Virus genome (UHGV): UHGV-0127437
Source of the DNA: a virus
DNA: 51,462 bases
Strand: one strand, 5' to 3'
The notes beneath the pieces are model-generated. The model did not search any database, had not been told where the DNA came from, and was given only the letters and a program-made list of their open reading frames with translations. The position numbers and the translations under genes are program-made. Every line of letters starts with the position of its first letter. The stretch's first letter is position 1. Positions 1 to 50,737 of the stretch are shown here, piece after piece.

Positions 1-49
1 ACATTGATGGGCTATGCCGGGCAGATACAATTCACGACAGACACTTTTT

Positions 50-1315
50 TCACTTCACACGCAAAAGGTCTTCATATCGAGTGGTGTATCGCGGTGAGAG
101 CATCTCCCGCTTCATCTGCCACTGCTGTTGTATGCCCTGTCCGGCGAAGTAGAGCGTACCTACGCCGTCTTTGGTGTTGAGATGATCCAGCACCTTCATC
201 AGTTTGTCGCTATTGCGCCGCGGCGCGTTATCATCAAAAAGGTTGAGTTGTGCCACCCCCTGGCTGAAGAAGTCGCCGAGCATAACGCCTGCCTTCTGGT
301 AACGGCGTCCATCTTTCCAGACAGCATCCAGGCATCGCGTGGCCGCGCCGATAATGTCCCGGCTGTCCTGCGTCGGGGTCAGAAGCTTCACAGAGGCGCT
401 GTTGCCGTAATACGGTTCGTTCAGTGCAAACGGGCTTGTCTTCACGAACGCGGAGATAAACCGGCAATATTGATGCTCGCCGCGCAGCTTCTCCGCCGCC
501 CGGCTGGCGTAACTGAAAATCGCCTGACGCATCTCTTCGTAATCAGTGATACGACCACTGAAGGAGCGTGAGCAGACGATTTCCTGCTTTACTGGTGCAA
601 ACTCTTCCAGTTCCAGACACGGCTCACCACGCAGCTCGCGTACCGTTCTTTCGAGCACAACATTGAAATGCTTCTTGATAAACCGGATATCTGTGTCAGC
701 CAGGTCAAGAGCAGTTTCGATGCCCATCCCCTCCAGCTTTTTAGAGATGCGTCGCCCTATACCCCACACCTCGCCAACTGGCAGCGCAGCTAACAGTTTA
801 CGCTGCCGGCCCACGTTCGATAAATCAACAACACCACCAGTCTGTCGTTGCCACTTCTTTGCCGCATAGTTAGCCAGTTTCGCGAGGGTTTTTGTCTGCG
901 CAATACCGACACCGACGGTGAGATGTGTACGCTGTAATACTGTAGTGCGGATCTCCCGGCCAAATTCAGTAAGATCACGGCAGTTTCGCACGCCAGTCAT
1001 GTCACAAAATGCCTCGTCTATGCTGTAAATTTCGACGCGGGGACTAATTTCTTCCAGCGTTGTCATTACGCGATTCGACATATCAGCGTAAAGCTCATAG
1101 TTACTGGAGAACGCGACGATGCCGTGACGGCGAAAAGTCTCTTTTTGTTTGAAATAGGGCTCCCCCATTTTAACAAAGGACTTCGCTGCTGCTGAACGGG
1201 CAATAACACAGCCATCATTGTTAGAGAGAACGACAACCGGCCTTCCTTTTAGGTCTGGCCTGAACACCGTTTCACAACTCGCATAGAAGCTGTTCACGTC
1301 TACGAGTGCAAACAT
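50..1315 (-). CDS. umuC: Error-prone DNA polymerase V catalytic subunit UmuC (Y-family polymerase)
   Basis: 421-aa ORF; N-terminus MFALVDVNSFYASCETVFRPDL...VVVLSNNDGCVIARS and overall colinear similarity to enterobacterial UmuC as recalled; ATG start; directly downstream of umuD in same operon. Confidence 0.9.
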   Translation of the reverse strand: MFALVDVNSFYASCETVFRPDLKGRPVVVLSNNDGCVIARSAAAKSFVKMGEPYFKQKETFRRHGIVAFSSNYELYADMSNRVMTTLEEISPRVEIYSIDEAFCDMTGVRNCRDLTEFGREIRTTVLQRTHLTVGVGIAQTKTLAKLANYAAKKWQRQTGGVVDLSNVGRQRKLLAALPVGEVWGIGRRISKKLEGMGIETALDLADTDIRFIKKHFNVVLERTVRELRGEPCLELEEFAPVKQEIVCSRSFSGRITDYEEMRQAIFSYASRAAEKLRGEHQYCRFISAFVKTSPFALNEPYYGNSASVKLLTPTQDSRDIIGAATRCLDAVWKDGRRYQKAGVMLGDFFSQGVAQLNLFDDNAPRRNSDKLMKVLDHLNTKDGVGTLYFAGQGIQQQWQMKREMLSPRYTTRYEDLLRVK

Positions 1316-1317
1316 AC

Positions 1318-1734
1318 TCAGCCAGCAGACTTCACGATGTAAGTTACGACGCCGAAAACCTCCAGATTGTCTTCACTTCCAATCATGATTGGTTTATACA
1401 CAGAGTTTTCAGGCTTGAGCATGACAGCAGGATGCAGCAACAGGCGCTTAACTGTGAACTCACCGTCGACCGCTGCAATGACAATGTCCCCATGCCCTGC
1501 TTTTCGTGAACTGTCGACTACCAACAAATCGCCTTCGCCGATTCCGGCATCACGCATAGAATCTCCTGTGGCCTTCACGAAATACGTCGCGCTTGGGTGC
1601 CTCACCAGCAATTCGTTAAGGTCTATACGCGACTCAACATAGTCCTGAGCAGGGGAAGGAAACCCGCATTGCACAAGGTCACTAAACATTGGGAGCGCCA
1701 CATGGCGTAGATCTGTAGGCGTGAAAAACTGCAT
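1318..1734 (-). CDS. umuD: UmuD, LexA-like S24 self-cleaving peptidase subunit of Pol V
   Basis: ORF with [12 protein letters not shown]...[12 protein letters not shown]...GDLLVVDS motifs typical of UmuD/LexA C-terminal domain; track start at 1743 is GTG, in-frame ATG at 1734 with AAGGTGA RBS preferred; stop overlaps/abuts umuC. Confidence 0.85.
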
Positions 1735-1752
1735 GATAATCACCTTAATTGA

Positions 1753-1772
1753 TACTGATTATATATACAGTA
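1753..1772 (-). promoter_or_regulatory. LexA box (SOS operator) upstream of umuDC
   Basis: tactgattatatatacagta = CTG-N10-CAG palindrome matching LexA consensus TACTGTATATATATACAGTA, 19 bp upstream of umuD ATG. Confidence 0.75.
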
Positions 1773-2034
1773 TTATTGTATCAATGGCAGCGATCAAGTC
1801 TCTTAGAAGTACAACACGGTAAGTAACTGGCGTGAGGTGAAATTTAGTTTTGTGGGACATCATCGGCGACCTGCACTATCGAACGATCGCCAACTGGCCG
1901 CATCAGTGTCTTGCATACGCTCTGGTGAGTAAACTTGACGACCCTTCGCCTTTAACGCCCCTCTATCATGTATGTCGATCAAGTACCGCGTTAGTGCTAC
2001 ACTTGCACTCTTTCAGAATTCACTGATTTTTCAC

Positions 2035-2397
2035 ATGTTAAAGCTATTTAGTCGATATGTTTCGGTTGGTGTTGTGAACACCGCGATTCATTGGTTATGC
2101 TTTGCTGGTTTGCTTCACTTCTTTGGCGCCAGCCAGGCCATTTCCAATGTTACGGCATTTTGCGTGGCTGTAACTTTTAGCTTCTTCGCTAATGCAAAGT
2201 TTACTTTCAACTCTCAGGCTACGACCGGGCGTTACATTGCGTTCGTCGTATTCATGGGGGTTATGGCTATGCTCACTGGGTTTATCGCAGATCAACTCAA
2301 GGCACCACCGATTTTAACGCTTGTGGCGTTCTCGGCTTTCAGCCTGATCGCGGGATTTATCTACTCAAAATTCATAGTATTTAGGGATGCTAAATGA
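2035..2397 (+). CDS. gtrA: GtrA, bactoprenol-linked glucose flippase (O-antigen modification)
   Basis: 120-aa membrane protein from ATG at 2035 ([20 protein letters not shown]...[11 protein letters not shown]...[11 protein letters not shown]) matching GtrA family signature; stop overlaps gtrB start (ATGA). Confidence 0.8.
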
Positions 2398-3314
2398 AAA
2401 TCTCTCTGATCGTTCCGGTCTTCAATGAAGAGGCCACGATACCGATTTTCTACAAAACGGTTCGGGAATTCGACGAATTAAAACAACATGAAGTTGAGAT
2501 AGTATTCATCAACGATGGCAGCAAAGACACAACGGAATCAATTATCAATGCGCTTGCTGTATCCGATCCGCTCGTCATGCCATTATCATTTACCCGTAAT
2601 TTTGGCAAGGAGCCAGCTTTGTTTGCCGGGCTTGATCACGCAACAGGTGATGCTGTTATCCCTATCGATGTCGATTTACAAGACCCCATTGAAGTTATCC
2701 CGCATCTGATAGAGAAATGGCAGGCTGGCGCTGATATGGTTCTGGCTAAACGCACCGATCGTTCAACGGATGGAAGGCTAAAACGAAAGACCGCAGAATG
2801 GTTCTACAAGTTACACAACAAAATCAGCAACCCACAGATCGAAGAGAATGTGGGTGATTTCCGTCTCATGTCCCGTGAGGTTGTGGAAAACATTAAGCTA
2901 ATGCCAGAACGTAACTTGTTCATGAAAGGCGTTCTTAGCTGGGTTGGCGGAAAGACTGACGTTGTGGAATATGCCCGCGGCGAGCGCGTAGCTGGTGACT
3001 CTAAATTCAATGGCTGGAAATTATGGAATCTGGCTCTTGAAGGGATCACCTCCTTCTCAACGTTTCCGCTACGCATGTGGACATACATTGGCCTTTTTGT
3101 CGCAGGTCTGTCATTCCTGTATGGGGCATGGATGATTGTTGATAAGTTATTTTTCGGCAACAGCGTCCCTGGCTATCCGTCGCTGCTTGTATCAATACTT
3201 TTCTTGGGGGGTATTCAACTTATTGGGATCGGTGTTCTTGGTGAGTATATAGGAAGAATTTATATAGAAACAAAGAAAAGACCAAAATATATTTTGGGGA
3301 AACGCAAAAAATGA
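2394..3314 (+). CDS. gtrB: GtrB, bactoprenol glucosyltransferase (GT2 family)
   Basis: 306-aa [16 protein letters not shown]...INDGSKD...DVDLQDP motifs of GT-A glycosyltransferase, C-terminal TM helices; operon position after gtrA. Confidence 0.85.
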
Positions 3315-4909
3315 GAATAACGAAGATTTTTATTGTCACTTTGACATTCATTGTTATAAGTCTGCCTTTATTTGGTCACTTCTGGACGTCAGGAGACCTG
3401 TCCGCCCATTATTATAGGCTCATATCTATAAAACATCAGTTGGAAACACATCAGTTTCCGATGTATTTCGATTTCGTAACTGATAACATGCAAGGGTATG
3501 GATATTCATGGAATTTATTTTACCCTCCACTGACAGCTTTTCTGTATACAATTATAGAGCTATTAAGCTTTAATAGCATTGATGCTGTTATACAGTTAAA
3601 AATAAGCATAGCAATAATCTCAGCAATAAATTTTTTTATTATGTATTTTTCTGTAAAGAGAATTTTCAACTCTTCACAAATTGCTTTTATCTCAGCGATA
3701 CTATCCGTTACATCATACTATTTTCTATACAATCAATACACTCGCTCTGCATTTCCTGAAGCTCTTGCTATGAGCTTTGTACCCTTGTTACTTTTGGGGC
3801 TATTTGGGTACATCAACAACAATAAAAATAAAATTTATTTACCATTGTCGTTTTCGTTAATACTGTTAACAAATATACCCGCAACCATTGTCACTCTTAT
3901 ATTTATAACTTTATTTGTAGTAATCTTTCATAAGAAATTCATAGAACAATATCGAGATGTAATTTTACATTCATTTATAGTTATTGGTATAACGTCATTT
4001 TTTATACTTCCGCTTTATTACACATCTAAAGGTGACATTTACGCCTTTACATCTATGAAATCAAGTTATGAATCAATGTGGAAGCTAACCATACCAGTTA
4101 TTAACTTAATCATACCGACAAGAACAACGGAGTACCCTTTCAGACTTATTACACCGGGATGGGTTATAATGGGGCTAATAATAGCCTTGTTCACCATGAA
4201 AAAAAATGGTGATAAATTATCTTCCATGCTTGATGGGCACCATAAGGTGGCTATTTCAATATCTTTATTATTCATAATAATGTGCTCACAAATGTTCCCA
4301 TGGAATCACATACCAAAACAGCTTCCGGTACTTAATTTCATTCAGTTCCCCTGGCGAATGATGCTTATATCATCGCCAATCCTGTGCATTTTCGCTGCTC
4401 TAACTCTTGTCAAAATCGCCCAAGAATCCCAAGGGAAGAAAGGTTTAATTTATATTGTCATATTTTCATCAATTATTCTTTCTATGTATGCGTCAACAAG
4501 TCCATTCGATAACAAGGCGAGACTGCCATGGTATCAAGTATATCTTGATTACATGCCTAACAACATGGCGAGAAAAATAAATGAAATTAAAAAAACCAAA
4601 AAAGAACCTATAGTGTTAAGTGGAAATGGAAGTATTGTAAGCGCTAGATTAACTGGCGGCTATCCAACATATAAATATATTTGCATGGATGATTGTACAA
4701 TTCAACTTCCTGTAATTCCTTATAGAGGATATGAGGTAGAAGGAGTTAAATCTTTTTCTGAAAACAACATGGGGTTGATGCAGGTTAACGTATCAAAAGG
4801 GAGTGGGCAAATAAATTTAAAATATAATCCAATTATTATCTACATATCATACGGAATTACGTTAATCACAATAATATTGTTGTTATATTTTACAAGAAGA
4901 AAATCATGA
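3311..4909 (+). CDS. GtrC-like serotype-specific O-antigen glucosyltransferase (polytopic membrane protein)
   Basis: 532-aa very AT-rich ORF with many predicted TM segments, third gene of gtr operon, start overlaps gtrB stop; followed by strong terminator. Confidence 0.6.
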
Positions 4910-4911
4910 TA

Positions 4912-4944
4912 GAAGGGGCCGCATAAAACGGCCCCTTCTTATTA
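4912..4944. terminator. Bidirectional rho-independent terminator between convergent gtrC and tailspike genes
   Basis: Perfect 10-bp stem gaaggggccg/cggccccttc with 8-nt loop, T-run on + strand after stem; lies between the two convergent stop codons. Confidence 0.7.
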
Positions 4945-6978
4945 AACTATATTACCCACACCATCTTTCCACGCACTTCCTGTCCATGTGATAGCATAAC
5001 CAAGAGTTGTATCCAGTATCTGCGCTCCTGCATCTGCTGCGTTTAATGAAGGGCGTAGTGCGGTCGTAAAGCTCGGTATCCGCACAGGTTTGTTAGCCTG
5101 TATGACGTTGTTCGGAGAAGTAATGTTACCAAAAGAACCAGATACTACGTGGATGACTGCGTAGCGATAACGTAACGCACCTACGCCAGTCCCTTCATCA
5201 GTGCCTAATGAAATAGTGCCGTCTCTGTGTGGCCGCAGGTACGCATGGCTACCTGACTCGTATACCGGGCCGAGGCGCATTGGGTTGGCGGTGCCGATAC
5301 AGATCCAGTTGGCAGAGAATAGCCGGTTATATGCTGTAGGGGCAGACCCATCAACATTATTGACTGTCAGGTCACTGACACCCAAGCCGTTGTGCCCACC
5401 AATAATACTCACTCGACCCGTAAGGTTAGTCATATAGTGGGTTCCAGCTTCACTATAGGTGTTTACCAAGTTAACGTTCGCTACCCGGTTCATGTAGAGA
5501 TTCCCTACACGAATGGTCGTGTTAACAAAGAATAGCTTGCTGCCGCGCCCATCCTGCCATTCTTTCGGATAACCGTTGACTGACGTTGTACCACTCCCAG
5601 ATCCGTCTGTAGCGTAATCGTTCATTCGGTTCGCGGGTTTCTCTGCGGTGTTTATCGCGGCATCGAGGTAAACCCCGCGAATGACGCTATTTGAGAAAAA
5701 CAGGTCGGACGTTCCTGTGCCGCCCCAAATCCAGTTAAGCGCGTAGCCGTTAGCCCCTTGCGGGTATTTAGTCCCGTCCCGGATATCCCGGTCAGTACCC
5801 TTTAGTTTCAACCCATACGAGCTAATCGCGCTTACCAACTGAGTGGGCTGTTTTGGGTCGAGAGGCCATGCAAAGAAATTATCGAATGACAAATCGCACA
5901 TGCTTTGACTGTTGATGCGCCCATTGATATTGAACGTATTGCCAGAACCGTTATTCTGGTCAGATCGGGAGCAGTCGAGGAGAACTGCATCATTCGCAAA
6001 GTAGCCGATAACCGCAGTACCAGACAAGGTTAACCCTGACACTGCCGGAACAAACAGGCCATATGAGAAGCACGCCGTTGCCCCGACGTCATCCACCCCG
6101 GTCAGCGATGGCGCTTCAAGAGTCCCGTCTGTCCGTTTGCGCCACCCCATCAGCACAACGTTGTTGATTGAGATTCCGTGGTCGCAAATACATAAGCCTG
6201 CACTGATCGCCGGGTCATCAGCGCCCTCTACAACGTCTGTCAGGACGTACGTTGCGGGGGTGCCTTTGAGGTTAAATCGGGTAAATCCCGGATCACTGAT
6301 AAGCGTCGCGAGTGTCGTCGCCTCATGACGCATACTATGTGAACGCACCGTGACGGCCTGCGCACCGGTAATGGTCGTGTTTCGTGGGATCATTCCCCAT
6401 TCAATATCAAAATCACCTGGGGGGAAGTGGCAGTTCCTACCAGCATTCTCATCTAAAAACGCCTGGATTTCTTCTTTTGTTGCGCCGCTTCCCCCCGTGA
6501 AATACACGTCATAAGACAGCCGTTCTGCAACCGTCACATCACCATAGCCGATCTGATCTGCACCGGTTGGCAGCGCCAGTTCGCGGCGCAGGACATCGCT
6601 GACATCTACGGCCAGCCATTTTCCGACACCTGTACCGCCGGATGAATCTGGAGTAGAGCCTGGCGGAACGGTTTTCGGTAGGGTCGTTAGATCATCCCAG
6701 CGATACCATGCGCCTGTTGTCTCATCCTGAATGATGTCACCGGCGGAATTAATAACCGCCCCGCCCTGAAATGTCCCGACTGGATTTAAGCCGAGGTTCG
6801 CGAGCGCTGTTTTATAACGCTCTTCCATTCCATGCCACGTAAGGCGCGGCACGCCAAAACGGTCATCCCATGTTTCATTAACCCGGTCATTCGAAAGGTG
6901 ATCAAAGTTCTGTGCGTTATCGTAAAGAACCTTGGCGGATGCAGAACCAAGAGGTTCATTGGTGTTATAGGTGGTCAT
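4942..6978 (-). CDS. Tailspike / tail fiber receptor-binding protein (likely O-antigen specific, beta-helix type)
   Basis: 678-aa ORF, ATG start; conserved phage-tail-attachment-like N-terminus, Gly/Asn/Thr-rich repetitive body typical of beta-helical tailspikes; P22-like position next to gtr operon at prophage end. Confidence 0.65.
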   Translation of the reverse strand: MTTYNTNEPLGSASAKVLYDNAQNFDHLSNDRVNETWDDRFGVPRLTWHGMEERYKTALANLGLNPVGTFQGGAVINSAGDIIQDETTGAWYRWDDLTTLPKTVPPGSTPDSSGGTGVGKWLAVDVSDVLRRELALPTGADQIGYGDVTVAERLSYDVYFTGGSGATKEEIQAFLDENAGRNCHFPPGDFDIEWGMIPRNTTITGAQAVTVRSHSMRHEATTLATLISDPGFTRFNLKGTPATYVLTDVVEGADDPAISAGLCICDHGISINNVVLMGWRKRTDGTLEAPSLTGVDDVGATACFSYGLFVPAVSGLTLSGTAVIGYFANDAVLLDCSRSDQNNGSGNTFNINGRINSQSMCDLSFDNFFAWPLDPKQPTQLVSAISSYGLKLKGTDRDIRDGTKYPQGANGYALNWIWGGTGTSDLFFSNSVIRGVYLDAAINTAEKPANRMNDYATDGSGSGTTSVNGYPKEWQDGRGSKLFFVNTTIRVGNLYMNRVANVNLVNTYSEAGTHYMTNLTGRVSIIGGHNGLGVSDLTVNNVDGSAPTAYNRLFSANWICIGTANPMRLGPVYESGSHAYLRPHRDGTISLGTDEGTGVGALRYRYAVIHVVSGSFGNITSPNNVIQANKPVRIPSFTTALRPSLNAADAGAQILDTTLGYAITWTGSAWKDGVGNIV

Positions 6979-6984
6979 GCTGGC

Positions 6985-7020
6985 CTCATAAAATAGAAAA
7001 CCCGCGATTATTCGCGGGTT
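6985..7020 (-). terminator. Rho-independent terminator upstream of tailspike gene (terminates upstream minus-strand transcript)
   Basis: Stem aacccgcga/tcgcgggtt with ttat loop; U-rich tract on minus strand immediately after. Confidence 0.6.
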
Positions 7021-7043
7021 CTGAATGTTATCTAGTGGAGTGA

Positions 7044-7565
7044 TTATTTGATGAAAGACAAGATCTCATTTTCTTGGAAAGTGTATTTTTTATCCTCTTC
7101 CTCAACAGAGAGACAAAGTGCATCTGATAATTTCCTTACTACTGAATAATTATCAGCTATCAGTGTTGCGGTTTCCTGATCTACTTGATGGTGCAGCGAT
7201 TCAAAACTGATACTATTGCCGTAAAGATTTTTCAATAGCAGCAAGTATTCATGCGCTTTTAACCAGTCAAGACGCCCTCCTCCACCTGCATTAAACTCTC
7301 TTCTCACGGTGGCTGCATTATATGCAATACCATTAAATGCCTGTGCATACACACCAGACCATAAAGTAATTATTCTGGATTTGGTGAATGTTATTACGTC
7401 ATTGACATCATAAATGTTCCAGTCAGGTATTATAGTGGTCGACCCTTTCGGCCCTGAAAGAGAATCATTAATTATCTCTATAGGGCCGACAATACCACCT
7501 TGTAATTTCCATGAGAGCCAATGCCCAACCTCGTGTAACACAACATCCTTTAACTGAACCGCCAT
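7044..7565 (-). CDS. Hypothetical protein with N-terminal HExxH motif (possible ImmA/IrrE-like or other zinc metallopeptidase); low-GC cargo
   Basis: ORF with ATG at 7565 preceded by GGGAGGGG RBS (track GTG at 7583); motif VLHEVGHWL; AT-rich relative to flanking tail genes. Confidence 0.45.
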   Translation of the reverse strand: MAVQLKDVVLHEVGHWLSWKLQGGIVGPIEIINDSLSGPKGSTTIIPDWNIYDVNDVITFTKSRIITLWSGVYAQAFNGIAYNAATVRREFNAGGGGRLDWLKAHEYLLLLKNLYGNSISFESLHHQVDQETATLIADNYSVVRKLSDALCLSVEEEDKKYTFQENEILSFIK

Positions 7566-7607
7566 ATCCCCTCCCGCATCCACAGTCGATATTACACTAC
7601 ATCACGA

Positions 7608-10325
7608 TCATCCTACATTGCCGGGATAAGTGGCATTGTCGTAATCGTAGAAGCTGGGTTTATACTGCTTCGCCGTTACCTGGCATGTGCCATCAGATTG
7701 AGGCGCGATCTCAGAGATAATGGCGTTATAGCCAACGCGCGAAGAGTCGCAAAAAATAAGGCGTGGTGGCTCAATAGCCGGATCATTGAGGACGATTTCA
7801 GCAAATTCATTCAGGTATCGCACTGTCACCTGATAATCATCAGCCCTGATTGCCGTAAGAAGAGATGATGCGGTCCCGTCCTGAAATCGGATGATCACTC
7901 GCGGGTTTTCATAACTCCAATCCAGTGGCTCGGTTACCGTGAATGTTGTCAGCGCATTTTCGGTTGTCATTTCATCAACCAGACAGGAAATAGTTTTATT
8001 GCCAGGAATATCGTCTGTCAGCACTATGCGGTCGCCGACGTTATAGCAAAGGGCGTCCAGTTCGGTTAATGTCGTATGCGTCAGCCGTTGCTGTAGGTAC
8101 TTAATCAGCCGCCGCATGCCGATCTGATATGCCCGGTCCCGGTCGAGCACACCGTCAAGCGTATAGTCTTCGATTTTTACGGGCGTTGGATTTCCCGGTA
8201 TCCGGCACTGTACCGTTTCCTCCGCCCAGGTGGTGCCGTTGATATACGTAACGTCCACGCCGTCATAGTCGTCGTAAGACGGAGCCACGAACGCGGTTTG
8301 CAAGTCTTCTGTCATCTCATGTGGACTGATAACCCCCGACCAGGGCTTAACGCCTTCGCGCGCAACCGAGGCAAGCCCGTCTGCCAGCAGAAAATAGCTT
8401 TTCCCGGCGTTGGCGATCTTCTGCAAAACCTCCAGCGCAGATGTGCTGTCAGTCGTCTCGAAGTCGAAAAACTCATTGTCAGGCGTCCAGTACGCACTTT
8501 CCAGCGCATCAATGGCGTCGGTGTCCATATCCAGCCCCAGCGAGTTACCAACATAGTACAGCGCGCCGGAGATGCTGCGCGCCGCGCCAGTGTCGTAAAT
8601 CCTTGTAGCTACCACGTTCACCCGGCGATCGGACTGCGCCGCCAGCTTACCGCCGGTTTCCACCGTGACGCCCATCGTCGTTACGCCAGCGTACGATGAC
8701 GGCCTGGTCAGCAGGCGGCCACGCAATGATTGCCAGTACATATTATCTCGGCTGTTATCCTGCCCCTGCTCGTTAGTGCGCCGACACCGCACTTCAACAA
8801 GACCGGGAGAATTCAGCGTGATGCGCTCAGTGAAACCAAGGCCATTAATATTTTTTGTGTTATACGAACCGGTTTTGCTCATCCATCCCGAACCAGAACC
8901 ATAAACGCGGTACTGAACTTCCCAGCGAACCGTTCTGTTTTGTTTTCTCCCTTTTTTGTCGTACCCGCAAATGCCATTCGGGAAGAAGAAATTCACTTCA
9001 AACATGTCGATGGTTTCATTATCCGGGCATGCCAGAAATGGCCCCATCCAGGAGTCATTCTGGTTAACGCCAGATGCCTCAAAATCAAGTACGGTACGCG
9101 CCACGAAACCCGGCCATGTGTTATCGACAACACCGTCAATCAAGCGTTGAAGAGTCACACTGGTGCCGTCCACGTCGAAAATTTTGAACTGATATCCAGC
9201 GTGAGAAACAGAAAGCCTGATATACCCCTCAGGAATACCCGTAAAAGGCGCGCCGGTTTCATTCTCATAAGCCAGCGTTATAGACGCGGTGACTTCCTCT
9301 TCTTCCTCTGTCGCGTCTGCATGCGGCGTATACGAAGCGATAAACAGGCTATAGTCGACGCTGTTGTACCAGAGCGTTACCGGCATTCCGACGTAAGGGG
9401 CGATTTCCGCCAGATTGTCACTGGTAATACGGCTGTATGCGCCATCGTTGGTAACAACAAACTGATCGGGTACGATTAGCTCAACCGTCGCACCAGCAAC
9501 CCAGGAATCAGGCAGCTCGTTTGTTGCAGTATCGTCGTCAGCGCTTAATCCGTTAAATGTGATTGTACTTCCCGACACCGTCAGCGACTGCGCCACAACA
9601 TCATCCGTATCCGGCGCGGTCTGGGCCATATCCAGCCCGGCACCCGATGACGTCCCGCCAACCTCGGTAGAGTTAAACCAGTTTTCGCTACGGCGATCAC
9701 CAGCCACATTCTGACCTGGCTGAAAAACGGTGTACGTGAAACCATCACCAAGCGATGAAACTGGTGTGGCACCAACACGCATATCCCCTTCGCCGAATGA
9801 AAATTGTCCGAATCCCAGAGCAACGAACATTTCAACGGTCATCACTGTCGGATCGTCCGGGCGGAACCGGGTTACCGGCTGCACTACATAATCGGGGTAA
9901 ATTCGGCGGCGTCCGAACAGCTCGCGGATTGGATCGCCCAGTTTTGCACGATTCGCTTTTGCCGGGTTAACGTCCAGTGAATCGCCTGTCGACGAAGAAA
10001 AACCACCGGGATCTGATGCGCCAGGCGCAAAGAACAGCGCATAAGCCACAGATGCGACCGAAACAGCAACGGCAATCCACGCCAGCGCAACGGCGCCATG
10101 AGGAACCGGATAAATGCGCACATCACTTGTCGGGCTGATCGCATAATCGAACCATGCCGCAGCCGGGATATTCACGCCGTCCACTTCAATGGCGATCGGA
10201 TGTTTCATATCAGCGCGATAATTATCAACGTTCCGCGTCATCCACTGATGGATCGTGATAGCACTATGTTCATGCGTTTCCAGCGGTTCGCCAGGTAATC
10301 GGGAAGGATAAATTCTAATGGTCAC
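7608..10325 (-). CDS. Tail tip / central tail fiber protein (lambda gpJ-like host specificity protein)
   Basis: 905-aa ORF following NlpC/P60 tail gene in M-L-K-J-like order; GTG start overlapping upstream stop (GTGA). Confidence 0.6.
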   Translation of the reverse strand: MTIRIYPSRLPGEPLETHEHSAITIHQWMTRNVDNYRADMKHPIAIEVDGVNIPAAAWFDYAISPTSDVRIYPVPHGAVALAWIAVAVSVASVAYALFFAPGASDPGGFSSSTGDSLDVNPAKANRAKLGDPIRELFGRRRIYPDYVVQPVTRFRPDDPTVMTVEMFVALGFGQFSFGEGDMRVGATPVSSLGDGFTYTVFQPGQNVAGDRRSENWFNSTEVGGTSSGAGLDMAQTAPDTDDVVAQSLTVSGSTITFNGLSADDDTATNELPDSWVAGATVELIVPDQFVVTNDGAYSRITSDNLAEIAPYVGMPVTLWYNSVDYSLFIASYTPHADATEEEEEVTASITLAYENETGAPFTGIPEGYIRLSVSHAGYQFKIFDVDGTSVTLQRLIDGVVDNTWPGFVARTVLDFEASGVNQNDSWMGPFLACPDNETIDMFEVNFFFPNGICGYDKKGRKQNRTVRWEVQYRVYGSGSGWMSKTGSYNTKNINGLGFTERITLNSPGLVEVRCRRTNEQGQDNSRDNMYWQSLRGRLLTRPSSYAGVTTMGVTVETGGKLAAQSDRRVNVVATRIYDTGAARSISGALYYVGNSLGLDMDTDAIDALESAYWTPDNEFFDFETTDSTSALEVLQKIANAGKSYFLLADGLASVAREGVKPWSGVISPHEMTEDLQTAFVAPSYDDYDGVDVTYINGTTWAEETVQCRIPGNPTPVKIEDYTLDGVLDRDRAYQIGMRRLIKYLQQRLTHTTLTELDALCYNVGDRIVLTDDIPGNKTISCLVDEMTTENALTTFTVTEPLDWSYENPRVIIRFQDGTASSLLTAIRADDYQVTVRYLNEFAEIVLNDPAIEPPRLIFCDSSRVGYNAIISEIAPQSDGTCQVTAKQYKPSFYDYDNATYPGNVG

Positions 10326-10702
10326 TTCCAGAACTCCACTTTAACGAAGCGGCGAACAAACTGTGCCACCGGCGTGAAAGAAACGTTGGATTTAGGGTTG
10401 CATTCGGCCACATGCAGACGGCCATTAAGCACCACGACAACGCCGACATGCGTAACAGTTGAGCCTGAATAGCAGGCAACACCCGCACCTTCACATGGCT
10501 CGCAGCGTTGTAGGGAAAGCATCAGTTTCCTCGCTTCTCGATTAAGCCCTCCACTATCTTTCGTCACTCCGGCGAAATCCGGCCACTCATGAAGCCCCAG
10601 ATCGCGACGCACCTCATTCACAATGCCGAAACAGTCAAGTTCAGGGTAAGCGCGACCGCCCTTCAGCCATCTGACCGAAAGGTATTTATCTTGATTGAAC
10701 AT
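10322..10702 (-). CDS. Tail assembly protein with NlpC/P60-type cysteine peptidase fold (lambda gpK-like)
   Basis: 126-aa ORF, ATG start; Cys...His arrangement (LDCFGIV...THVGVVV) reminiscent of NlpC/P60; position between minor tail genes and J-like gene. Confidence 0.55.
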   Translation of the reverse strand: MFNQDKYLSVRWLKGGRAYPELDCFGIVNEVRRDLGLHEWPDFAGVTKDSGGLNREARKLMLSLQRCEPCEGAGVACYSGSTVTHVGVVVVLNGRLHVAECNPKSNVSFTPVAQFVRRFVKVEFWK

Positions 10703-10711
10703 TGAAACTCC

Positions 10712-11200
10712 TTAGCTCATGTAACGAAGGCCAGGATAGAACGGGAGTGTGTAGCGATAGCGTGGCCAGGCAGTATCCAGCACATTCATGTATCCCGCGA
10801 TAATCTGCGCCTGTGTTGCAGTCCAGTACCCGTTTTTAACCGTCAGGGTATAAGGACGGTCTGCGGGCGCGGCTAAATCGTCAGATGTATATTGTCGGTA
10901 GGTCACCGTGGCGCCACGTAGATTTTCCAGCGCGCTACGCACGGATGTGGATGCTTCTCCTTTGATGTTTGAGACAGCAAACTGCAAGTCCTGCGTGCCG
11001 TCACTGTTCCGCGCCGGTAGCGCAACATCGATGGCGCTGGCGATGAATGTGACCTCTTCACCAGTTTCCGTCGTCGCTGTTATATTGTCGTAGCCATCGC
11101 AGAGATACATGACATCATCACCGATGTTGATCTGCAAAGTTTTGATAATGACCTCTTCACCGGAAGAGGCGTACAGTCGTTTTAAAGTCGGACTGGTCAT
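10712..11200 (-). CDS. Minor tail protein (gpL-like position)
   Basis: ORF with ATG at 11200 overlapping upstream stop (ATGA); located between tape measure-proximal gene and K-like gene. Confidence 0.5.
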   Translation of the reverse strand: MTSPTLKRLYASSGEEVIIKTLQINIGDDVMYLCDGYDNITATTETGEEVTFIASAIDVALPARNSDGTQDLQFAVSNIKGEASTSVRSALENLRGATVTYRQYTSDDLAAPADRPYTLTVKNGYWTATQAQIIAGYMNVLDTAWPRYRYTLPFYPGLRYMS

Positions 11201-29513: not shown

Positions 29514-29617
29514 ACTGGCTCCAGAAACGACAAAGCCCCGCACGATGGCGAGGCTTTAAGTTCGTCGACAATCAAAGCTATGGCGACAATATCAGATTTA
29601 CATGAAATATAGCCGTT

Positions 29618-34554: not shown

Positions 34555-35136
34555 ATGAACGCTAACTCACAGCCAACGCCAGATCAAGAAATCAAGATCG
34601 AGGTCATCCGCTGGCATCAAAAACTCCAGGAAATCACCTACATCGAAGCTGGTCAACACATGCGTGCTTTGAACCAACTGATGTGGCAGATTCCAAGTCT
34701 GGTAATCGCCATTAATGGTGGGCTCTGGTATGCTGCTACACTAGTTAATGAAGCCTCACTTTGGATGATTTTTGCTTTTTTAACAGTTTTCGACCTGCTC
34801 ACTATTTGCACGCTTTTTCGACTTAGGGTTCTGATAGGAAAAAAAATAACCAAACAAAATGATATTGAAGAACTATCGAAAAATAGCATACTTCAAGACC
34901 TTAGTAATAAATCCGGCATAATAATCTCACCTACCCCAGCTCCTAAAAAAGAGAGCAAGTTCATTGTAGTTGGATGCTGGACCATATGCTTATTGCTCTG
35001 CGCTATTATTAATTTTCATGGCTCATTTAATCCGTCGATATTTTCAAAACCTAGCGAAAACAATAAGTCCGAACAAAACACAACTCACCTCATCTGTGTT
35101 TCTAAGACAGCACCCACAAATGGAGAAATAAAATGA
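34555..35136 (+). CDS. Hypothetical polytopic membrane protein, low-GC cargo
   Basis: 193-aa ORF, ATG start; at least three hydrophobic helices; stop overlaps downstream methyltransferase start. Confidence 0.5.
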   Translation: MNANSQPTPDQEIKIEVIRWHQKLQEITYIEAGQHMRALNQLMWQIPSLVIAINGGLWYAATLVNEASLWMIFAFLTVFDLLTICTLFRLRVLIGKKITKQNDIEELSKNSILQDLSNKSGIIISPTPAPKKESKFIVVGCWTICLLLCAIINFHGSFNPSIFSKPSENNKSEQNTTHLICVSKTAPTNGEIK

Positions 35137-35738
35137 CCACATGGAAATTTTATGATGACAATGCCTTACGTTTATTTAATGACTATCAATCCCTAAATTT
35201 TAAAGATATATTTTCTGACGTTGAATCCTACTTCCTTGCTTCCCGCGGAGATGCTCTGGACGTAGGTGCTGGTTCTGGAAGGGATTCTGCTGCTTTATTT
35301 AAAATGGGCTACAATGTAACAGCTGTAGAGCCAAGCGATAACATGCGAAATCTTGCGGCCGAAAATCATAAGCACTGTGATATTACTTGGGTCAATGATT
35401 CATTGCCTGAACTAAGAAAGATCACTCAATCACTAAAGACCTTTGACCTTATAATTGTTAGTGCAGTCTGGATGCACCTAAATGAAAACCAGCAGGAGAG
35501 GTCGTTATTTACTCTATTCAATCTTCTATCCGCCAATGGAGTTATGATCATTACATTGCGATTAGGGCCAGCCGAACCCGATAGACAAATCAGTGTGATT
35601 TACACAGAAGATTTAATTGCTCTTTCAAAAAAATTAGGGCTAACGGTTGAATATATTAGCCCTGTCAATACGGATAGTTTTAATAGACCATCCGTTACTT
35701 GGCAAAAAGTGGTTTTATCTAAAAAAACCACTTCATAG
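35133..35738 (+). CDS. Class I SAM-dependent methyltransferase (substrate unknown)
   Basis: 201-aa ORF with motif I DVGAGSGRDSAAL and downstream acidic/hydrophobic motifs of Rossmann-fold MTases; no DPPY/NPPY DNA-MTase motif seen. Confidence 0.65.
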   Translation: MTTWKFYDDNALRLFNDYQSLNFKDIFSDVESYFLASRGDALDVGAGSGRDSAALFKMGYNVTAVEPSDNMRNLAAENHKHCDITWVNDSLPELRKITQSLKTFDLIIVSAVWMHLNENQQERSLFTLFNLLSANGVMIITLRLGPAEPDRQISVIYTEDLIALSKKLGLTVEYISPVNTDSFNRPSVTWQKVVLSKKTTS

Positions 35739-35744
35739 ATGCCA

Positions 35745-36989
35745 TTACTCACAAAGCCCATAACGTGATGAACAGACCTCGGTATTCAGGCTTGATTTGA
35801 CCAAGTCGTAGACTTTCCCCCCGCGACCTGTTTTGGCCCACTCCACAACTTCATCAACACTTGGCGAGTTCAGGTTTGCGCGAGGTCCATAGAACCCAGA
35901 CCAATCAATATGCTGCACCTCAGGTTCTAACCCATAGAGCTGCACATTTCTACCAAGGGGCAGGTCAAACGACTTCATCCAGCGCTGGTTTATCTCGCCA
36001 ACACTCATCCAGTGAACCCAGCGAGACGTTAGACGAACCTTCAGCTCCCACTCTTTGTGCTTCTCAATATGCTCCGGCCAGCGCGAAAATGTCTCAGCAA
36101 TTTCTTCTTTGTTACACAGCACGCAATTCATACAACCGACACGTGAGGCTCCCTGCGTGTAAAGCGGGTTTGGCGATATCCCGAAGTATTTGTGGAGCGC
36201 GAATACATCTGTGGCCGTCCACTGGTGAATGGGAAGGAAGTTATACAAAAAATCCGGGTCACGCTTGTCAGTGGAGAAGCGCTCATAGCTGGCTCTCTTT
36301 GATGACTCATCTGCCCGTACACCAGACCACTGGACGACCACGTCGCCATCATCCAGCATTGGTTGCAGAGCTTTATCAAAGGCGATCTGAATTTTGAGCT
36401 CATCGGTACAGAATCGGTCGCGAAGCATCGGAAATTTACCATGCAACAGTGCGCAGTCTAGAAAGCTATTTCCGCTTGGATGCATAACAGACAGAGCAGC
36501 ATCCAGCGCAGTTTCGAATTCAATTCCCCAACGCTCAGCAGTACGCAGCCAGGCCTGCCCAAACGCTGTATCGGAGCGGCCGAGTGAAGGCATAACAACA
36601 CCCCTATATGCCCCCATACGAATGGCCTGACGCTTAACCCAGTTCTTCTGGATGTATCCTCGGCGGCGTTCAAAATCAACCTCGGTATATATCCGCTTAA
36701 CAACCTGAACTGGCGCGCATCCAATCTGTTCATGGATAGTTTTTGCGAACTGTACGGTAAGCTCGTGTTCATTATCTGTATCAGCCATAACAGCCTGAAC
36801 TCTACCGCCAAACAATGCATGGGCAACTGCCAGAGTGGCCGTGCTGTCCTTTCCTGCTGAATAATTGACGACGATTTTGTGATCATCAGGGATGCGGAAT
36901 TCAGTGAGGTAGCGATTATAGGCCAATCCAATTTCGCGAATTTTTTCGCTGATGTCGGTCGGTGCAATAATCATTGCTGCGTTGCTCAT
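35745..36989 (-). CDS. Phosphoadenosine phosphosulfate (PAPS) reductase-family PP-loop protein (IbrA-like phage protein)
   Basis: 414-aa ORF with PP-loop motif NYSAGKDST and extended C-terminal domain; resembles phage/prophage PAPS reductase-like proteins as recalled. Confidence 0.7.
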   Translation of the reverse strand: MSNAAMIIAPTDISEKIREIGLAYNRYLTEFRIPDDHKIVVNYSAGKDSTATLAVAHALFGGRVQAVMADTDNEHELTVQFAKTIHEQIGCAPVQVVKRIYTEVDFERRRGYIQKNWVKRQAIRMGAYRGVVMPSLGRSDTAFGQAWLRTAERWGIEFETALDAALSVMHPSGNSFLDCALLHGKFPMLRDRFCTDELKIQIAFDKALQPMLDDGDVVVQWSGVRADESSKRASYERFSTDKRDPDFLYNFLPIHQWTATDVFALHKYFGISPNPLYTQGASRVGCMNCVLCNKEEIAETFSRWPEHIEKHKEWELKVRLTSRWVHWMSVGEINQRWMKSFDLPLGRNVQLYGLEPEVQHIDWSGFYGPRANLNSPSVDEVVEWAKTGRGGKVYDLVKSSLNTEVCSSRYGLCE

Positions 36990-37659: not shown

Positions 37660-38346
37660 TTATTCCCTCCCTGTCAGCTGCTGAACGAGATTTCTGTGGC
37701 GACCAATAACACGAACCGCGTCACGCAGTTTGGTCAGTTGCTCCAGCTTGTTTCTGGTGCGGCGGATTTCGCGAGAAATGTCCCGCACCGCTGGTACCGC
37801 TTCGACTGCGGCGCGCCCTTCAGTGAACGAGGGGATTTCACTCACGATCTGTTCGACCGGTTTTGCTTCTTCCGGCGCGGCAGGTGCCTCCGGTACCGGT
37901 TCTTGCTTAACGGGTTCTGTCACAACAGCAAGGGACCAGGTAACGCCTTTGCCCTTCCCGTTCTTCACCACAACGCCCTGGCGCTCCAGCGCGCGAAGAA
38001 CAGAGACCATTCCGCGGGCATTGCGATTGACGGCCGCGGCCAGCGAAACGGTCGTCATTGCCCCCTGCTCACGCAGCTGCTGTCGGACGACATCAGGATC
38101 TACGGGTTCCGGCTCCTCACCTTTCAGGCGCGGCGCCGGATGAACAGGTGCATTAGGCGTTGACTGCTGAGACTGACCTTTCACGGTACCGAGGAACCAG
38201 CCGCCGTCTCCAAAATCGCATAACCCCTGATCACGCTGCTCACGTAACATGGTGAGCGCATCAACCGGGTCGATTTCAAGACGGTCAGCAACTTCGCGGT
38301 ATGTCGCCCGCCCCATTTTTTCCAGTACCTGAATTACGGTTTCCAT
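37660..38346 (-). CDS. Hypothetical protein (winged-helix-like N-terminus, Pro/Glu-rich linker)
   Basis: ORF with ATG at 38346 and GAGG RBS (track start is TTG at 38361). Confidence 0.45.
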   Translation of the reverse strand: METVIQVLEKMGRATYREVADRLEIDPVDALTMLREQRDQGLCDFGDGGWFLGTVKGQSQQSTPNAPVHPAPRLKGEEPEPVDPDVVRQQLREQGAMTTVSLAAAVNRNARGMVSVLRALERQGVVVKNGKGKGVTWSLAVVTEPVKQEPVPEAPAAPEEAKPVEQIVSEIPSFTEGRAAVEAVPAVRDISREIRRTRNKLEQLTKLRDAVRVIGRHRNLVQQLTGRE

Positions 38347-38357
38347 GTGATTTCCTC

Positions 38358-39047
38358 TCAAATCAGTCCAGCGTCTTTTCGCTGTTTGTATTTCGCCATC
38401 AGCATCTGCGCCGGAGTCGGGCCTCGATCCTGATCTGGTGCGGTAAGTGCCCGACGTACTGGTGGAACTGGTTTCCCATCGAGAACACGCATTTCCCAGT
38501 CGTGGAGTAAATCGCCAGCAACGCGAACAAGCTCTTTCTCGCTGAGCTGGCCGTCAGTACCGCGTCTGCGCAGTTCAAGGCAAATGTGATAGAGCACGGG
38601 CTGGCTCCACGGGTATTGCTCACTGGTCGGGTAGCGAAAAACCAGCTTTCGCCAGCGCCAGTATTCGCTCATGATGTCGTCCACACTGACCCCCAGCGCG
38701 CCACTCCCCTCACGGCACCACGAAATAAACTGACCCGGCGACGGCCAGAACGGTGACTGACTGGATCGGGCTTTCTGCATTCCGGCTGAAAGCTGCTCAC
38801 GGGAGGTGATGCCTGACTCAGCAAAAGCGGCGATCCATTGCTGCTTTGCAACGCGAATATCATCGCCAGTACGTAGGTTCGTCTGAGTGGATGCCGGAAA
38901 TACCTGCATGAGATTTTCAAAAAGCATATCCACCAGCTTTTCAGCGTCACTGTTAACAACCTTACGGCCGTCGTAAGAATCTCCAGCCATGCGCGATAGC
39001 ATTTCGCTGTCGCGATTCTGAATTGCACGATAAAGATCCGGGGTCAT
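38358..39047 (-). CDS. Replication protein P-like helicase loader
   Basis: ORF with segment FPAS...SPFWPSPGQFISWCRE closely resembling lambda P (PFLPSPGQFVAWCRE) as recalled; ATG overlaps O stop (ATGA). Confidence 0.7.
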   Translation of the reverse strand: MTPDLYRAIQNRDSEMLSRMAGDSYDGRKVVNSDAEKLVDMLFENLMQVFPASTQTNLRTGDDIRVAKQQWIAAFAESGITSREQLSAGMQKARSSQSPFWPSPGQFISWCREGSGALGVSVDDIMSEYWRWRKLVFRYPTSEQYPWSQPVLYHICLELRRRGTDGQLSEKELVRVAGDLLHDWEMRVLDGKPVPPVRRALTAPDQDRGPTPAQMLMAKYKQRKDAGLI

Positions 39048-40042: not shown

Positions 40043-40157
40043 AGCTATGCCTCCCTTGCCTGGTGTTTTGAAAAACTCTTTGTCATAATGACCTCGTGAT
40101 TTCGCCTGGAATTACACCGAAGGCCGTCTGTGTTGGCGCACAGCGGTCTTCACCCTT

Positions 40158-44392: not shown

Positions 44393-44680
44393 ATGGAAAT
44401 CGTAAAAATCGAAATGAACCTGAAAGCAGTGAATAAAGAATTGGCTGTATTCAACTGCGAGAAGAAAGTATCAGGCGTTATTCATTCAGCCGAAACGGGC
44501 GCGGTCACGGTCATTCTTGACGGTGGCTATGTATTCGGCAAGTTCGACTGTCCTCTTTGTGCTGTAGAGGCAATTTCAATGCTGTCCGTAAAAGTAAGTG
44601 ATGGCGATAACGCCGGGTTTGGCAACTACCGCAGCTACAAACTCGATTACTCAGAAAAGGTTTTCAGCACCGTTCATTAA
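44393..44680 (+). CDS. Hypothetical protein
   Basis: 95-aa ORF, ATG start, early-left operon. Confidence 0.4.
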   Translation: MEIVKIEMNLKAVNKELAVFNCEKKVSGVIHSAETGAVTVILDGGYVFGKFDCPLCAVEAISMLSVKVSDGDNAGFGNYRSYKLDYSEKVFSTVH

Positions 44681-44807
44681 GCAAAAGCCCACACGAAGTG
44701 GGCCTGCCCGTCCGGCGTCACCGACCAAAGCGAACCGGACATTTCTACCTGGTAAAACCGAGGTGCCATTAAGGCGCCTCCATTCTACACGAATTGAGGA
44801 TAAAATA

Positions 44808-48821: not shown

Positions 48822-48861
48822 GGGAGGCGGGAGGGCGGCCCCTCCCGTCACAGGGGGTTAT

Positions 48862-49101
48862 ATGCGCCTTATCAATCGCAGTAAGCAATCTCCGTTAGGT
48901 CGTCGGGCATGCGATGCAGCACTGGCAAAGCATGTTGAGCTTTACGGGGAGTTTGGCCGACAGAAAACAAAGACCACTTATACCGTGGCGGTCGACGGCG
49001 TGAAGGTGACAGTAGAAGTTGTTAACCGACATAAGAGCTATGTCGCCACCGCAATGACAGGTATGCGCCGACTGCGCGCACTGCCAGGGCAGATTGCCTG
49101 A
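48862..49101 (+). CDS. Hypothetical protein
   Basis: 79-aa ORF between recT-like gene and excisionase. Confidence 0.35.
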   Translation: MRLINRSKQSPLGRRACDAALAKHVELYGEFGRQKTKTTYTVAVDGVKVTVEVVNRHKSYVATAMTGMRRLRALPGQIA

Positions 49102-49165
49102 TAACGAATTATCAATGTCACAACACCGGCGCATCTATACTGGCGCCGGTTACCTGAGGTGAACC

Positions 49166-50667: not shown

Positions 50668-50737
50668 TTTCATAGCGCTGGTTTCAATCCACACAATCAG
50701 CGTTAAACTACTAATACCGTTAATTTAGGGAGAAAAG

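Follow-up and report, generated by a model that had tools for sequence, protein, structure and literature searches.

In SPN9CC and other P22-like phages (Lederbergvirus), the tailspike gene converges on an operon read as gtrA, gtrB, gtrC; behind gtrA follow attP and int, the latter pointing the same way as the gtr genes. A hairpin occupies the short convergent gap. The switch of P22 requires the sites GATC1–4 at −110, −97, −46 and −33 and three OxyR half-sites, and gtr(LT2_II), which has a single GATC and lacks OxyR sites, was predicted to be a non-phase-varying case (PMC2909390). In Citrobacter, the glucosylated serotypes O26 and O7 are due to phage gtr operons (PMC6240886). In Enterobacter phage BUCT554 (Uetakevirus), which has another backbone, gtrABC converges on the gene of a tail protein with a right-handed beta-helix, the gap being 30 nt, and its GtrC is of the classical GtrII family (PF14264, E = 4e-24). 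A comparable division of labour is found in the Gram-positive teichoic-acid system (CsbB/GtlA, GtcA, YfhO), where a GT2 enzyme loads undecaprenyl phosphate (Und-P), a GtrA-family protein acts as the flippase, and a YfhO-type GT-C transferase attaches the sugar outside the membrane.

Here we describe a related locus in a stretch of 51,462 nucleotides (UHGV-0127437), referred to below as the window. It comes from a Citrobacter koseri prophage that occupies the site between purB and phoP. With a probability of about three in four, the gtr/tailspike module is a lysogenic-conversion unit of this lambda-like prophage, in which gtrABC would glucosylate the O-antigen and the convergent spike would target the same O-antigen. 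The module is of an ordinary lysogenic-conversion type, and the arrangement is already well known; GtrC and the binding domain of the tailspike are its only new variants. The features of the locus are as follows.

50..1743, minus strand: umuDC cassette (umuC 50–1315, umuD 1318–1743; Pfam IMS and Peptidase_S24)
1753–1772: LexA box, TACTG-N10-CAGTA, belonging with the umuDC cassette
1974..2034, plus strand: gtr core promoter and 5' leader (GATC4 equivalent 1977–1980, −10 box TACACT 1998–2003, inferred transcription start about 2010)
2035..2397, plus strand: gtrA, 120 aa, putative Und-P-glucose flippase (PF04138, phrog_2224)
2394..3314, plus strand: gtrB, 306 aa, GT2 undecaprenyl-phosphate glucosyltransferase (PF00535, phrog_34335, phrog_841)
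3311..4909, plus strand: gtrC, 532 aa, predicted GT-C-fold membrane glycosyltransferase, PTPS_related/YfhO-like type
4911..4939, no strand assigned: hairpin (arms 4911–4921 and 4929–4939), putative bidirectional terminator
4942..6978, minus strand: tailspike, 678 aa
6580..6978, minus strand: N-terminal particle-attachment module of the tailspike (about aa 1–133; PF18668)
4942..6579, minus strand: receptor-binding and probable depolymerase module of the tailspike (about aa 134–678; predicted right-handed beta-helix)
6997..7022, minus strand: terminator-like hairpin with a T-run directly upstream of the tailspike (by the scan, 11 pairs, 6 of them GC)
49381–50667: integrase
50691..50705, plus strand: attR core ACACAATCAGCGTTA, from the comparison with locus L007

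The element is apparently an intact lambda-like siphovirus prophage. Its tail genes encode a tape measure, a tube and a J-like tip, together with a side spike of the Tail_spike_N type, and this content rules out a P22-like podovirus. The earlier note had spoken of a P22-like arrangement. This holds for how the genes are arranged with respect to attP and int, as the order after circularisation (tailspike, gtrCBA, attP, int) matches that of the P22-like phages, but it does not extend to the morphology of the virion.

Within the window, no att repeat of 11 nt or longer is shared between 1–2100 and 48800–51462. The left attachment site was placed using L007, a C. koseri locus with 100% identity to window positions 1–7000: attL, the second copy of the core, lies about 206 bp to the left of position 1, outside the window. 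The umuDC cassette is an insertion of about 2 kb relative to loci L016 and L013, and is cargo placed between the gtr promoter and attL; the P22-like phages have no such cassette between gtrA and attP. Since this cassette intervenes, the gtr operon is situated near the end of the prophage, and not at the very end where it had been placed: umuD, umuC and about 250 bp more separate gtrA from attL. A low-GC ORF of 179 aa also lies in this region; PADLOC and NCBIfam gave nothing for it.

The gtrA, gtrB and gtrC genes are tail-to-tail with the tailspike gene, and the gap between them is 32 nt; the annotated loci of SPN9CC and BUCT554 have the genes in the same order. Thus the convergence of a gtrABC-type operon with a tailspike, proposed initially from the letters and ORFs, is borne out, all four ORFs being where they had been reported. 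The gtr genes are coupled, as they are joined by ATGA overlaps at 2394–2397 (gtrA/gtrB) and 3311–3314 (gtrB/gtrC). The longest gtrA ORF is 1972..2397, but its start, adopted at first, is spurious, because the −10 box lies at 1998–2003 and the homology with other gtr loci runs from 1974 on. The true start is the ATG at 2035.

GtrA matches PF04138 (E = 1e-15, 58 bits at a cut-off of 26) and, over residues 1–120 of 120, phrog_2224 (E = 5e-54), and is 58% identical, from Met1, to GtrA of SPN9CC; an NCBIfam search gave nothing for it. GtrB matches PF00535 (E = 1e-30, 107 bits), phrog_34335 (E = 2e-177) and phrog_841 (E = 6e-167). It is 91% identical at the amino-acid level to its SPN9CC counterpart, and the gtrB DNA is about 78% identical to that of BUCT554. 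A megablast search with the region, run on E. coli genomes and on phages, matched gtrAB alone.

All eight aligned C. koseri loci have the proteins of the module intact and with 100% conservation. The gtrA gene is called with 120 aa in six of the eight, whereas in the remaining two it is either 141 aa long or not called, and some loci have a short gtrC (473 or 482 aa). Pseudogenisation and slippage were rejected as causes, since the DNA is 100% identical; the calls differ because of the gene caller.

The gtr promoter aligns with that of SPN9CC, its core and leader being homologous and TAGTGCTACACT identical in both; positions were assigned after the P22 map (PMC2909390). Locus L013, which has an otherwise unrelated gtrA, shares the 77 bp at 1974–2050 at 98.7% identity. 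Homology to loci lacking umuDC begins at 1974, and the sequence upstream of that point is a part of the umuDC insertion. A check for Dam/OxyR sites upstream of gtrA had been suggested, and of the P22 switch one GATC out of four is kept, the GATC4 equivalent at 1977, overlapping the −35 region. The full set of two pairs spaced by 13 bp (−110/−97 and −46/−33) is absent: the GATC3 position reads TATC, the upstream pair is missing, and the GATCs at 1792 and 1885 are single and unpaired. No OxyR half-site (ATAGnTnnnAnCTAT, spacing of 32 bp) scores as high as 8/10 in the interval 1744–2040, whereas the SPN9CC control yields four GATC sites and, at the expected spacing, half-sites at 2567 (8/10), 2599 (9/10) and 2631 (8/10). 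The Dam/OxyR sites are missing from the relatives L011, L013 and L016 as well. Although the homologous core promoter and the retained GATC4 are what a phase-variable operon with a P22-type epigenetic switch would have, the lost sites and the precedent of gtr(LT2_II) make such a switch highly improbable here. Judging by the promoter sequence, the expression of gtr is probably constitutive.

The gtrC gene has a GC content of 0.328 against 0.505 for the remainder of the prophage, and its product contains about 11–13 hydrophobic segments, in agreement with its initial description as AT-rich and membrane-embedded. The best Pfam family is PF10131 (PTPS_related, E = 1.5e-8), with weak matches to YfhO and Alg9. 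The YfhO match (E = 0.001, 18 bits) is under the gathering threshold of 28.5 bits, and P0003, a GtrC relative of 30% identity, matches YfhO at E = 1e-10. Searches of GtrC against PF14264 (Glucos_trans_II), NCBIfam and, by its profile, PDB sequences gave no match. The AlphaFold model (pLDDT 83, pTM 0.88) finds its best PDB folds in STT3, AftA, AglB, ArnT and PglB, so that the fold matches exclusively transferases of the GT-C type using lipid-linked sugars. Residues D29, H33 and R36, directly after TM1, are near-invariant. On the strength of this model we are confident in the predicted GT-C fold. The protein belongs to a PTPS_related/YfhO-like family. The acceptor, linkage and sugar are putative, as GtrC is not of PF14264 and has no characterised close relative. 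The likeness to the teichoic-acid system is thus one of components; the host here is Gram-negative, the acceptor is presumably the O-antigen, and the best family is PF10131.

GtrC sets the locus apart from the P22-like phages: of the 50,697 phage records searched, just two match its sequence, both from Enterococcus phages and 24% identical. No relatives were found among the GTDB species representatives or in IMG/VR. Such a protein could act on the LPS core, the enterobacterial common antigen (ECA) or a protein of the periplasm or the cell surface, or use a lipid-linked sugar other than glucose. Its family and its distant phage matches are compatible with this, as is the fact that YfhO members of known function glycosylate teichoic acids (PMC5836110). 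However, GtrB is 91% identical to a protein annotated for O-antigen conversion, and the gene sits exactly in the gtrC slot, coupled to gtrB. Moreover, sister phages exchange the content of this slot, the breakpoint being near 3290, and have other gtrC types in it, including one with a Salmonella STM0557-type N-terminal domain (L021), and the neighbouring spike family is always found beside genes of the O-antigen-modification type. These observations make another acceptor or sugar quite improbable, and favour glucosylation of the O-antigen.

The gap between the stop codons of gtrC and the tailspike is filled by a hairpin with arms AGAAGGGGCCG and CGGCCCCTTCT and a loop of 7 nt. It folds with −22.8 kcal/mol on one strand and −24.7 kcal/mol on the other (z = −6.2 and −5.5), and none of 200 shuffles folds as well. 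It had been described as a perfect terminator with a 10-bp stem. The hairpin is indeed strong, perfect and GC-rich and separates the two units, but the stem has 11 bp, and no U-run follows directly 3' of it on either strand, the tails being UAUUAAAC (plus) and AUCAUGAUUUUC (minus). Hence the terminator scan, which demands five T in eight, leaves the hairpin out, and the label of a classical intrinsic terminator is unsupported. All eight variant loci have a hairpin at the same position with a different sequence.

The tailspike is composed of two modules. Its anchor matches PF18668 (Tail_spike_N) with E = 4e-13 and gp13 of PDB entry 9occ with E = 5e-10, whereas the spike of P22 has the P22 head-binding domain. 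The first 167 residues share 51% identity with the tail fibre of Salmonella phage Vi II-E1, a siphovirus, and of related Salmonella phages; for the C-terminal 510 aa, in contrast, the phage collection gave no match. Of 21 relatives, 11 carry PF12708, all of them at 53% identity or less; the tailspike itself does not reach this family, and NCBIfam gives only a chance-level match. The structural model is poor (pLDDT 57), and its top folds, at TM 0.2–0.4, are all beta-helix polysaccharide enzymes or tailspikes. The binding module alone recurs in other phages, P22-like ones among them, and its breakpoints lie at about 4930 and about 6570–6582. In L017, the same binding domain is mounted on the P22 head-binding anchor. 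The hairpin at 6997..7022 adjoins another mosaic breakpoint, at 6989.

An identical tailspike is indexed in 124 blocks of the collection, and in all eight loci shown gtr is beside it. This proximity might arise merely from a landing site for morons between the last tail gene and attP, the spike recognising some other surface glycan, such as capsule, colanic acid or ECA. The region is a cargo hot-spot, since both umuDC and the 179-aa ORF landed there. Further, Tail_spike_N spikes of related bacteria carry varied enzymes (SGNH esterases, GH43, phosphodiesterases), and Vi II-E1, the N-terminal relative, is recorded on a Vi strain of serovar Typhi, its spike presumably being an acetyl esterase that targets the Vi capsule. 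Nor is there a strict one-to-one pairing of spike and transferase: in L011 the binding domain is 93% identical and the paired GtrC just 54%, whereas in L016 the values are 82% and 97%.

On the other hand, for each of the nine examined binding-domain relatives, from at least four phage backbones and several integration sites, the convergent gene is of the O-antigen-modification type, that is, gtrABC with four different GtrC types or acetyltransferases of the AT3 or AT3-SGNH type. Two of the nine partners are AT3-SGNH fusions, a known architecture of O-antigen acetyltransferases. A shared hot-spot alone explains this poorly. We thus consider another glycan target unlikely, and the genomic context strongly favours the O-antigen as the predicted receptor of the tailspike.

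In a lysogen, the sigma-70 promoter homologous to that of P22 gtr would drive gtrA-gtrB-gtrC. GtrB would transfer glucose from UDP-glucose to undecaprenyl phosphate, GtrA would flip the product to the periplasmic face, and GtrC would attach the glucose to a specific sugar of the O-antigen repeat, thereby changing the O-serotype. The convergent gene would supply the side spike of the virion, in which an anchor of the Vi II-E1 type bears an interchangeable beta-helix domain; this domain most likely binds the same O-antigen and cleaves it. To this phage and related ones, the modified O-antigen of the lysogen would then offer a poorer receptor. The hairpin would stop the lysogenic gtr transcript and the late lytic tailspike transcript from colliding. 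What the analysis shows directly are the identities of the genes, their predicted folds and order, the homology of the promoter, the hairpin and the exchange of modules; the glucose, the role of the O-antigen as acceptor and receptor, and the superinfection exclusion are inferred.

A broader description is possible, though we hold it tentatively and find it rather less probable than not. The binding domain and the glycan-modifying gene may form a plug-in receptor/anti-receptor cassette, swapped among unrelated Citrobacter phages at fixed junctions. These may be the 77-bp gtr promoter linker, the gtrB/gtrC boundary, the hairpin, and the boundary between the anchor and the binding domain. The gtrC slot would here hold a low-GC PTPS_related/YfhO-like GT-C clade unseen in other sequenced Gram-negative phages, which might make an undescribed glucosyl linkage or serotype in C. 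koseri.

The findings leave the current understanding of gtr/tailspike systems unaltered. If functional, the operon would alter the O-serotype in many C. koseri isolates, and would bear on serotyping, on the host range in phage therapy and on immune recognition. GtrC, with no characterised relative, is a candidate serotype-specific marker. Finally, the comparative data map the points at which spike and modification modules are exchanged, which helps to predict the receptor specificity of phages from sequence.

By gene content, the left end of this Citrobacter koseri prophage is a predicted lysogenic-conversion operon of the gtrABC type, situated beside a putatively polysaccharide-specific tailspike. 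Salmonella and Shigella phages provide well-described examples of this arrangement. The ORF listing shows gtr genes that overlap and have the same direction; they converge with the tailspike gene, as proposed in the earlier note, and Pfam and PHROGs identify gtrA and gtrB:

1972 or 2035 to 2397, plus strand, gtrA (PF04138; phrog_2224, E 5e-54)
2394–3314, plus strand, gtrB (PF00535; phrog_34335, E 2e-177)
3311–4909, plus strand, gtrC (532 aa, polytopic membrane protein)
4911–4921 and 4929–4939, arms of a perfect 11-bp hairpin stem
4942–6978, minus strand, tailspike (678 aa)

GtrB and GtrA are 91% and 58% identical, respectively, to the proteins of the Salmonella P22-like phage SPN9CC. The description of gtrC as AT-rich and membrane-embedded also holds, its GC content being 0.328 versus 0.505 for the remaining prophage. 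The two convergent stop codons are 32 nt apart, and the hairpin fills this interval, with folding energies of -22.8 and -24.7 kcal/mol and z-scores of -6.2 and -5.5 on the two strands. Since it has no 3' U-run on either strand, it is absent from the consensus terminator scan listing. Hence the perfect-stem terminator suggested earlier is present as a perfect hairpin, but the stem is 11 rather than 10 bp long and the U-run is missing.

The P22-like gtr promoter can be aligned with the 60 bp upstream of the ATG at 2035, TAGTGCTACACT being identical. The P22 map, with GATC1–4 at -110, -97, -46 and -33 (PMC2909390), places two elements in the window:

1998–2003, gtr -10 element
near 2010, gtr transcription start

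As both are downstream of the ATG at 1972, previously taken as the start of gtrA, the gene starts at 2035 and encodes 120 aa; this type of start is called in six of eight fetched loci. A check for Dam/OxyR phase variation had been proposed. This promoter very probably lacks the P22-type switch, and expression is likelier to be constitutive, since only the GATC4 equivalent (1977–1980) is kept and no OxyR half-site of at least 8/10 was found in 1744–2040. At the GATC3 position, which falls within the umuDC insertion described below, the sequence is TATC, and there is no upstream GATC pair at the window gtr promoter. In SPN9CC, used as a control, the same half-site scan picked up three sites scoring 8/10, 9/10 and 8/10, spaced by 32 bp as expected. 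The stripped-down promoter is common to the related loci L011, L013 and L016; gtr(LT2_II), which has a single GATC and lacks a recognisable OxyR site, is the predicted non-phase-varying case (PMC2909390).

Many C. koseri assemblies encode a protein 100% identical to the tailspike. When window 1–7000 was aligned with eight fetched C. koseri loci, four were 100% identical throughout, a fifth was identical over 1754–7000 and had an insertion, and three were about 98% identical. The prophage is inserted between purB and phoP.

49381–50667, integrase gene
50691–50705, 15-bp att core ACACAATCAGCGTTA, directly past the integrase gene

A second copy of the core lies about 206 bp left of the window start, thus the window holds nearly the whole prophage. 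From left to right, the prophage carries attL (outside the window), umuC and umuD (minus), gtrA, gtrB and gtrC (plus), tailspike (minus), then J-like tip, tape measure, tube, head, lysis and replication genes, recET, int and attR. The tail genes are of the lambda-like siphovirus type (1013-aa tape measure with the lambda C-terminal domain, Phage_tube_2, FNIII-A_GpJ), which rules out a P22-like podovirus despite the P22-type coat protein. In the circularised order, the tailspike gene faces gtrC, gtrB and gtrA, followed by umuD and umuC, attP, and int in the gtr direction. The same order, from an annotated tailspike (38064–40067) through gtrCBA to int, is seen in SPN9CC, and gtrABC is convergent with a beta-helix tail protein in the Enterobacter phage BUCT554, so the gene order is a known one. 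Hence the P22-like reading stands for gene order, but not for the lambda-like siphovirus backbone. The gtr genes are near the prophage end rather than at it, since an extra cassette of about 2 kb separates att-proximal DNA from the gtr promoter:

50–1315, minus strand, umuC
1318–1743, minus strand, umuD
1753–1772, perfect LexA box of the cassette

Compared with sister loci L016 and L013, with which homology picks up again at 1974, this cassette, a LexA-regulated error-prone polymerase V carried as cargo, is an insertion. Two alleles, about 92–93% identical, circulate among otherwise identical prophages, and in L021 a different phage, integrated elsewhere in the chromosome, carries the same umuDC-gtrAB block (92%). 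One C. koseri strain has an insertion between gtrA and umuD, at a point corresponding to about 1753: a gene for a reverse transcriptase (L008, 15589–17076; PF00078, 495 aa), probably that of a group II intron.

GtrC matches PF10131 (PTPS_related, E 1.5e-8), with weak YfhO and Alg9-like matches; unlike BUCT554 GtrC, it has no Pfam match to the classical GtrII family PF14264. The confident AlphaFold model (pLDDT 83, pTM 0.88) comprises a multi-helix membrane domain, a periplasmic beta-sandwich (about 434–505) and a C-terminal transmembrane helix. The high-probability Foldseek matches in the PDB are exclusively GT-C enzymes using lipid-linked sugars (STT3, AftA, AglB, ArnT, PglB, AftD, DPY19, EmbA/B). 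The catalytic acid of such enzymes sits just after TM1; in GtrC, Asp29, His33 and Arg36, directly past TM1, are near-invariant among 25 relatives. The family is large (3721 representative clusters at E <= 1e-3), close relatives are rare (22 clusters at E <= 1e-30, the closest 54% identical), and searches of GTDB species representatives and IMG/VR found nothing. Among 50,697 phage records, tblastn matched no more than two, both of Enterococcus phages, at 24% identity. GtrC thus belongs to a PTPS_related/YfhO-like GT-C clade for which these searches give no other example among sequenced Gram-negative phages.

Tailspike residues 1–167 match PF18668 and share 51% identity with the Salmonella phage Vi II-E1 tail fibre/tailspike. 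For the remaining 510 or so residues, an uncharacterised, new binding domain, the phage collection gave no match, but Citrobacter prophages contain many relatives. Of 21 relatives aligned, 11 contain the pectate-lyase-like beta-helix domain PF12708. The structural model is poor (pLDDT 57) and its top fold matches have TM of only 0.2–0.4; all are polysaccharide enzymes or tailspikes of the right-handed beta-helix fold (YbhC, AlgE4, CBA120 TSP3, RbmB, Kp32gp38). The binding domain occurs on three kinds of anchor (Tail_spike_N, P22 head-binding domain, T7 tail-fibre N-terminus), such swapping being normal modular behaviour of tailspikes.

Neighbourhoods were fetched for eight more binding-domain relatives; in each, the spike converges with a gene of the O-antigen-modification type.

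Neighbourhoods of spike relatives (identity to the window; convergent genes; context)
L016: spike 82%; gtrABC, GtrC 97% identical; same backbone
L011: binding domain 93%; gtrABC, GtrC 54% identical; short contig
L013–L015: spike 61%; gtrABC with unrelated 566-aa GtrC; prophage remnant, same purB–phoP site
L021: spike 78%; gtrAB and GtrC with Salmonella STM0557-type N-terminal domain; umuDC present, different phage and site
L017: spike 75%; AT3-SGNH acetyltransferase beside int; P22-like head-binding anchor
L020: spike 82%; AT3-SGNH acetyltransferase; different backbone
L019: spike 42%; AT3 acyltransferase; different backbone
L018: spike 53%; unknown 456-aa gene, then AT3; same backbone

Each convergent gap contains a GC-rich hairpin of unrelated sequence (-15 to -27 kcal/mol). 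That such neighbours recur so consistently on several backbones is good, though indirect, evidence for O-antigen recognition by the spike family. At that, the pairing of spikes and modification genes is combinatorial, not one-to-one, hence the association does not establish that the window GtrC blocks the window spike.

Blastn of window 1–11000 against these loci places breakpoints at 1974, about 3290 (gtrB/gtrC junction), about 4930 (hairpin), about 6510–6582 (anchor/binding-domain junction) and 6989. The 77-bp promoter and leader (1974–2050) are 98.7% identical in L013, whose GtrA is only 32% identical, and in L021 the umuDC-gtrA-gtrB block (81–3290, 92% identical) is joined to a different gtrC and a different phage.

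Other features of the prophage were noted as well:

7044–7583, minus strand, low-GC (0.40) ORF of 173–179 aa, between the J-like tip gene and the tailspike
29532–29602, minus strand, isrJ (69.2 bits)
35133–35738, plus strand, 201-aa ORF matching the 'mad2' model
35745–36989, minus strand, 414-aa PAPS-reductase-domain protein (PADLOC similarity to SspD, BrxP, DndC)
44598–47720, plus strand, unusually long (1040 aa) RecE-like exonuclease VIII (PF06630 N-terminus, PDDEXK-like DUF3799 C-terminus)
44682–44770, minus strand, isrB (99.9 bits)
47733–48821, RecT

The first of these looks like a moron: it has an HEVGH motif (HExxH metalloprotease-like), its sole match is phrog_36675 (unknown function), with none in Pfam, NCBIfam or PADLOC, it is missing from sister phage L016, and a terminator-like hairpin (6997–7022) follows. 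Both isr hits are to Rfam families of Salmonella Hfq-binding sRNAs and score above gathering. The adjoining pair at 35133–36989 may be DNA-modification or defence-related cargo of the early region.

Other C. koseri strains (L013–L015) have a prophage remnant at the same purB–phoP att site, reduced to an integrase fragment, a xis-like gene, a different gtrABC and a tailspike that is still intact (672 aa, indexed in 47 collection blocks), which suggests that the spike and gtr end is kept while the rest of the phage decays. Phage gtr operons have been proposed as the cause of glucosylation in Citrobacter serotypes O26 and O7 (PMC6240886). What the present locus adds is modest: the GtrC clade, the spike binding domain, the siphovirus backbone, the probable loss of the Dam/OxyR switch and the adjacent umuDC.
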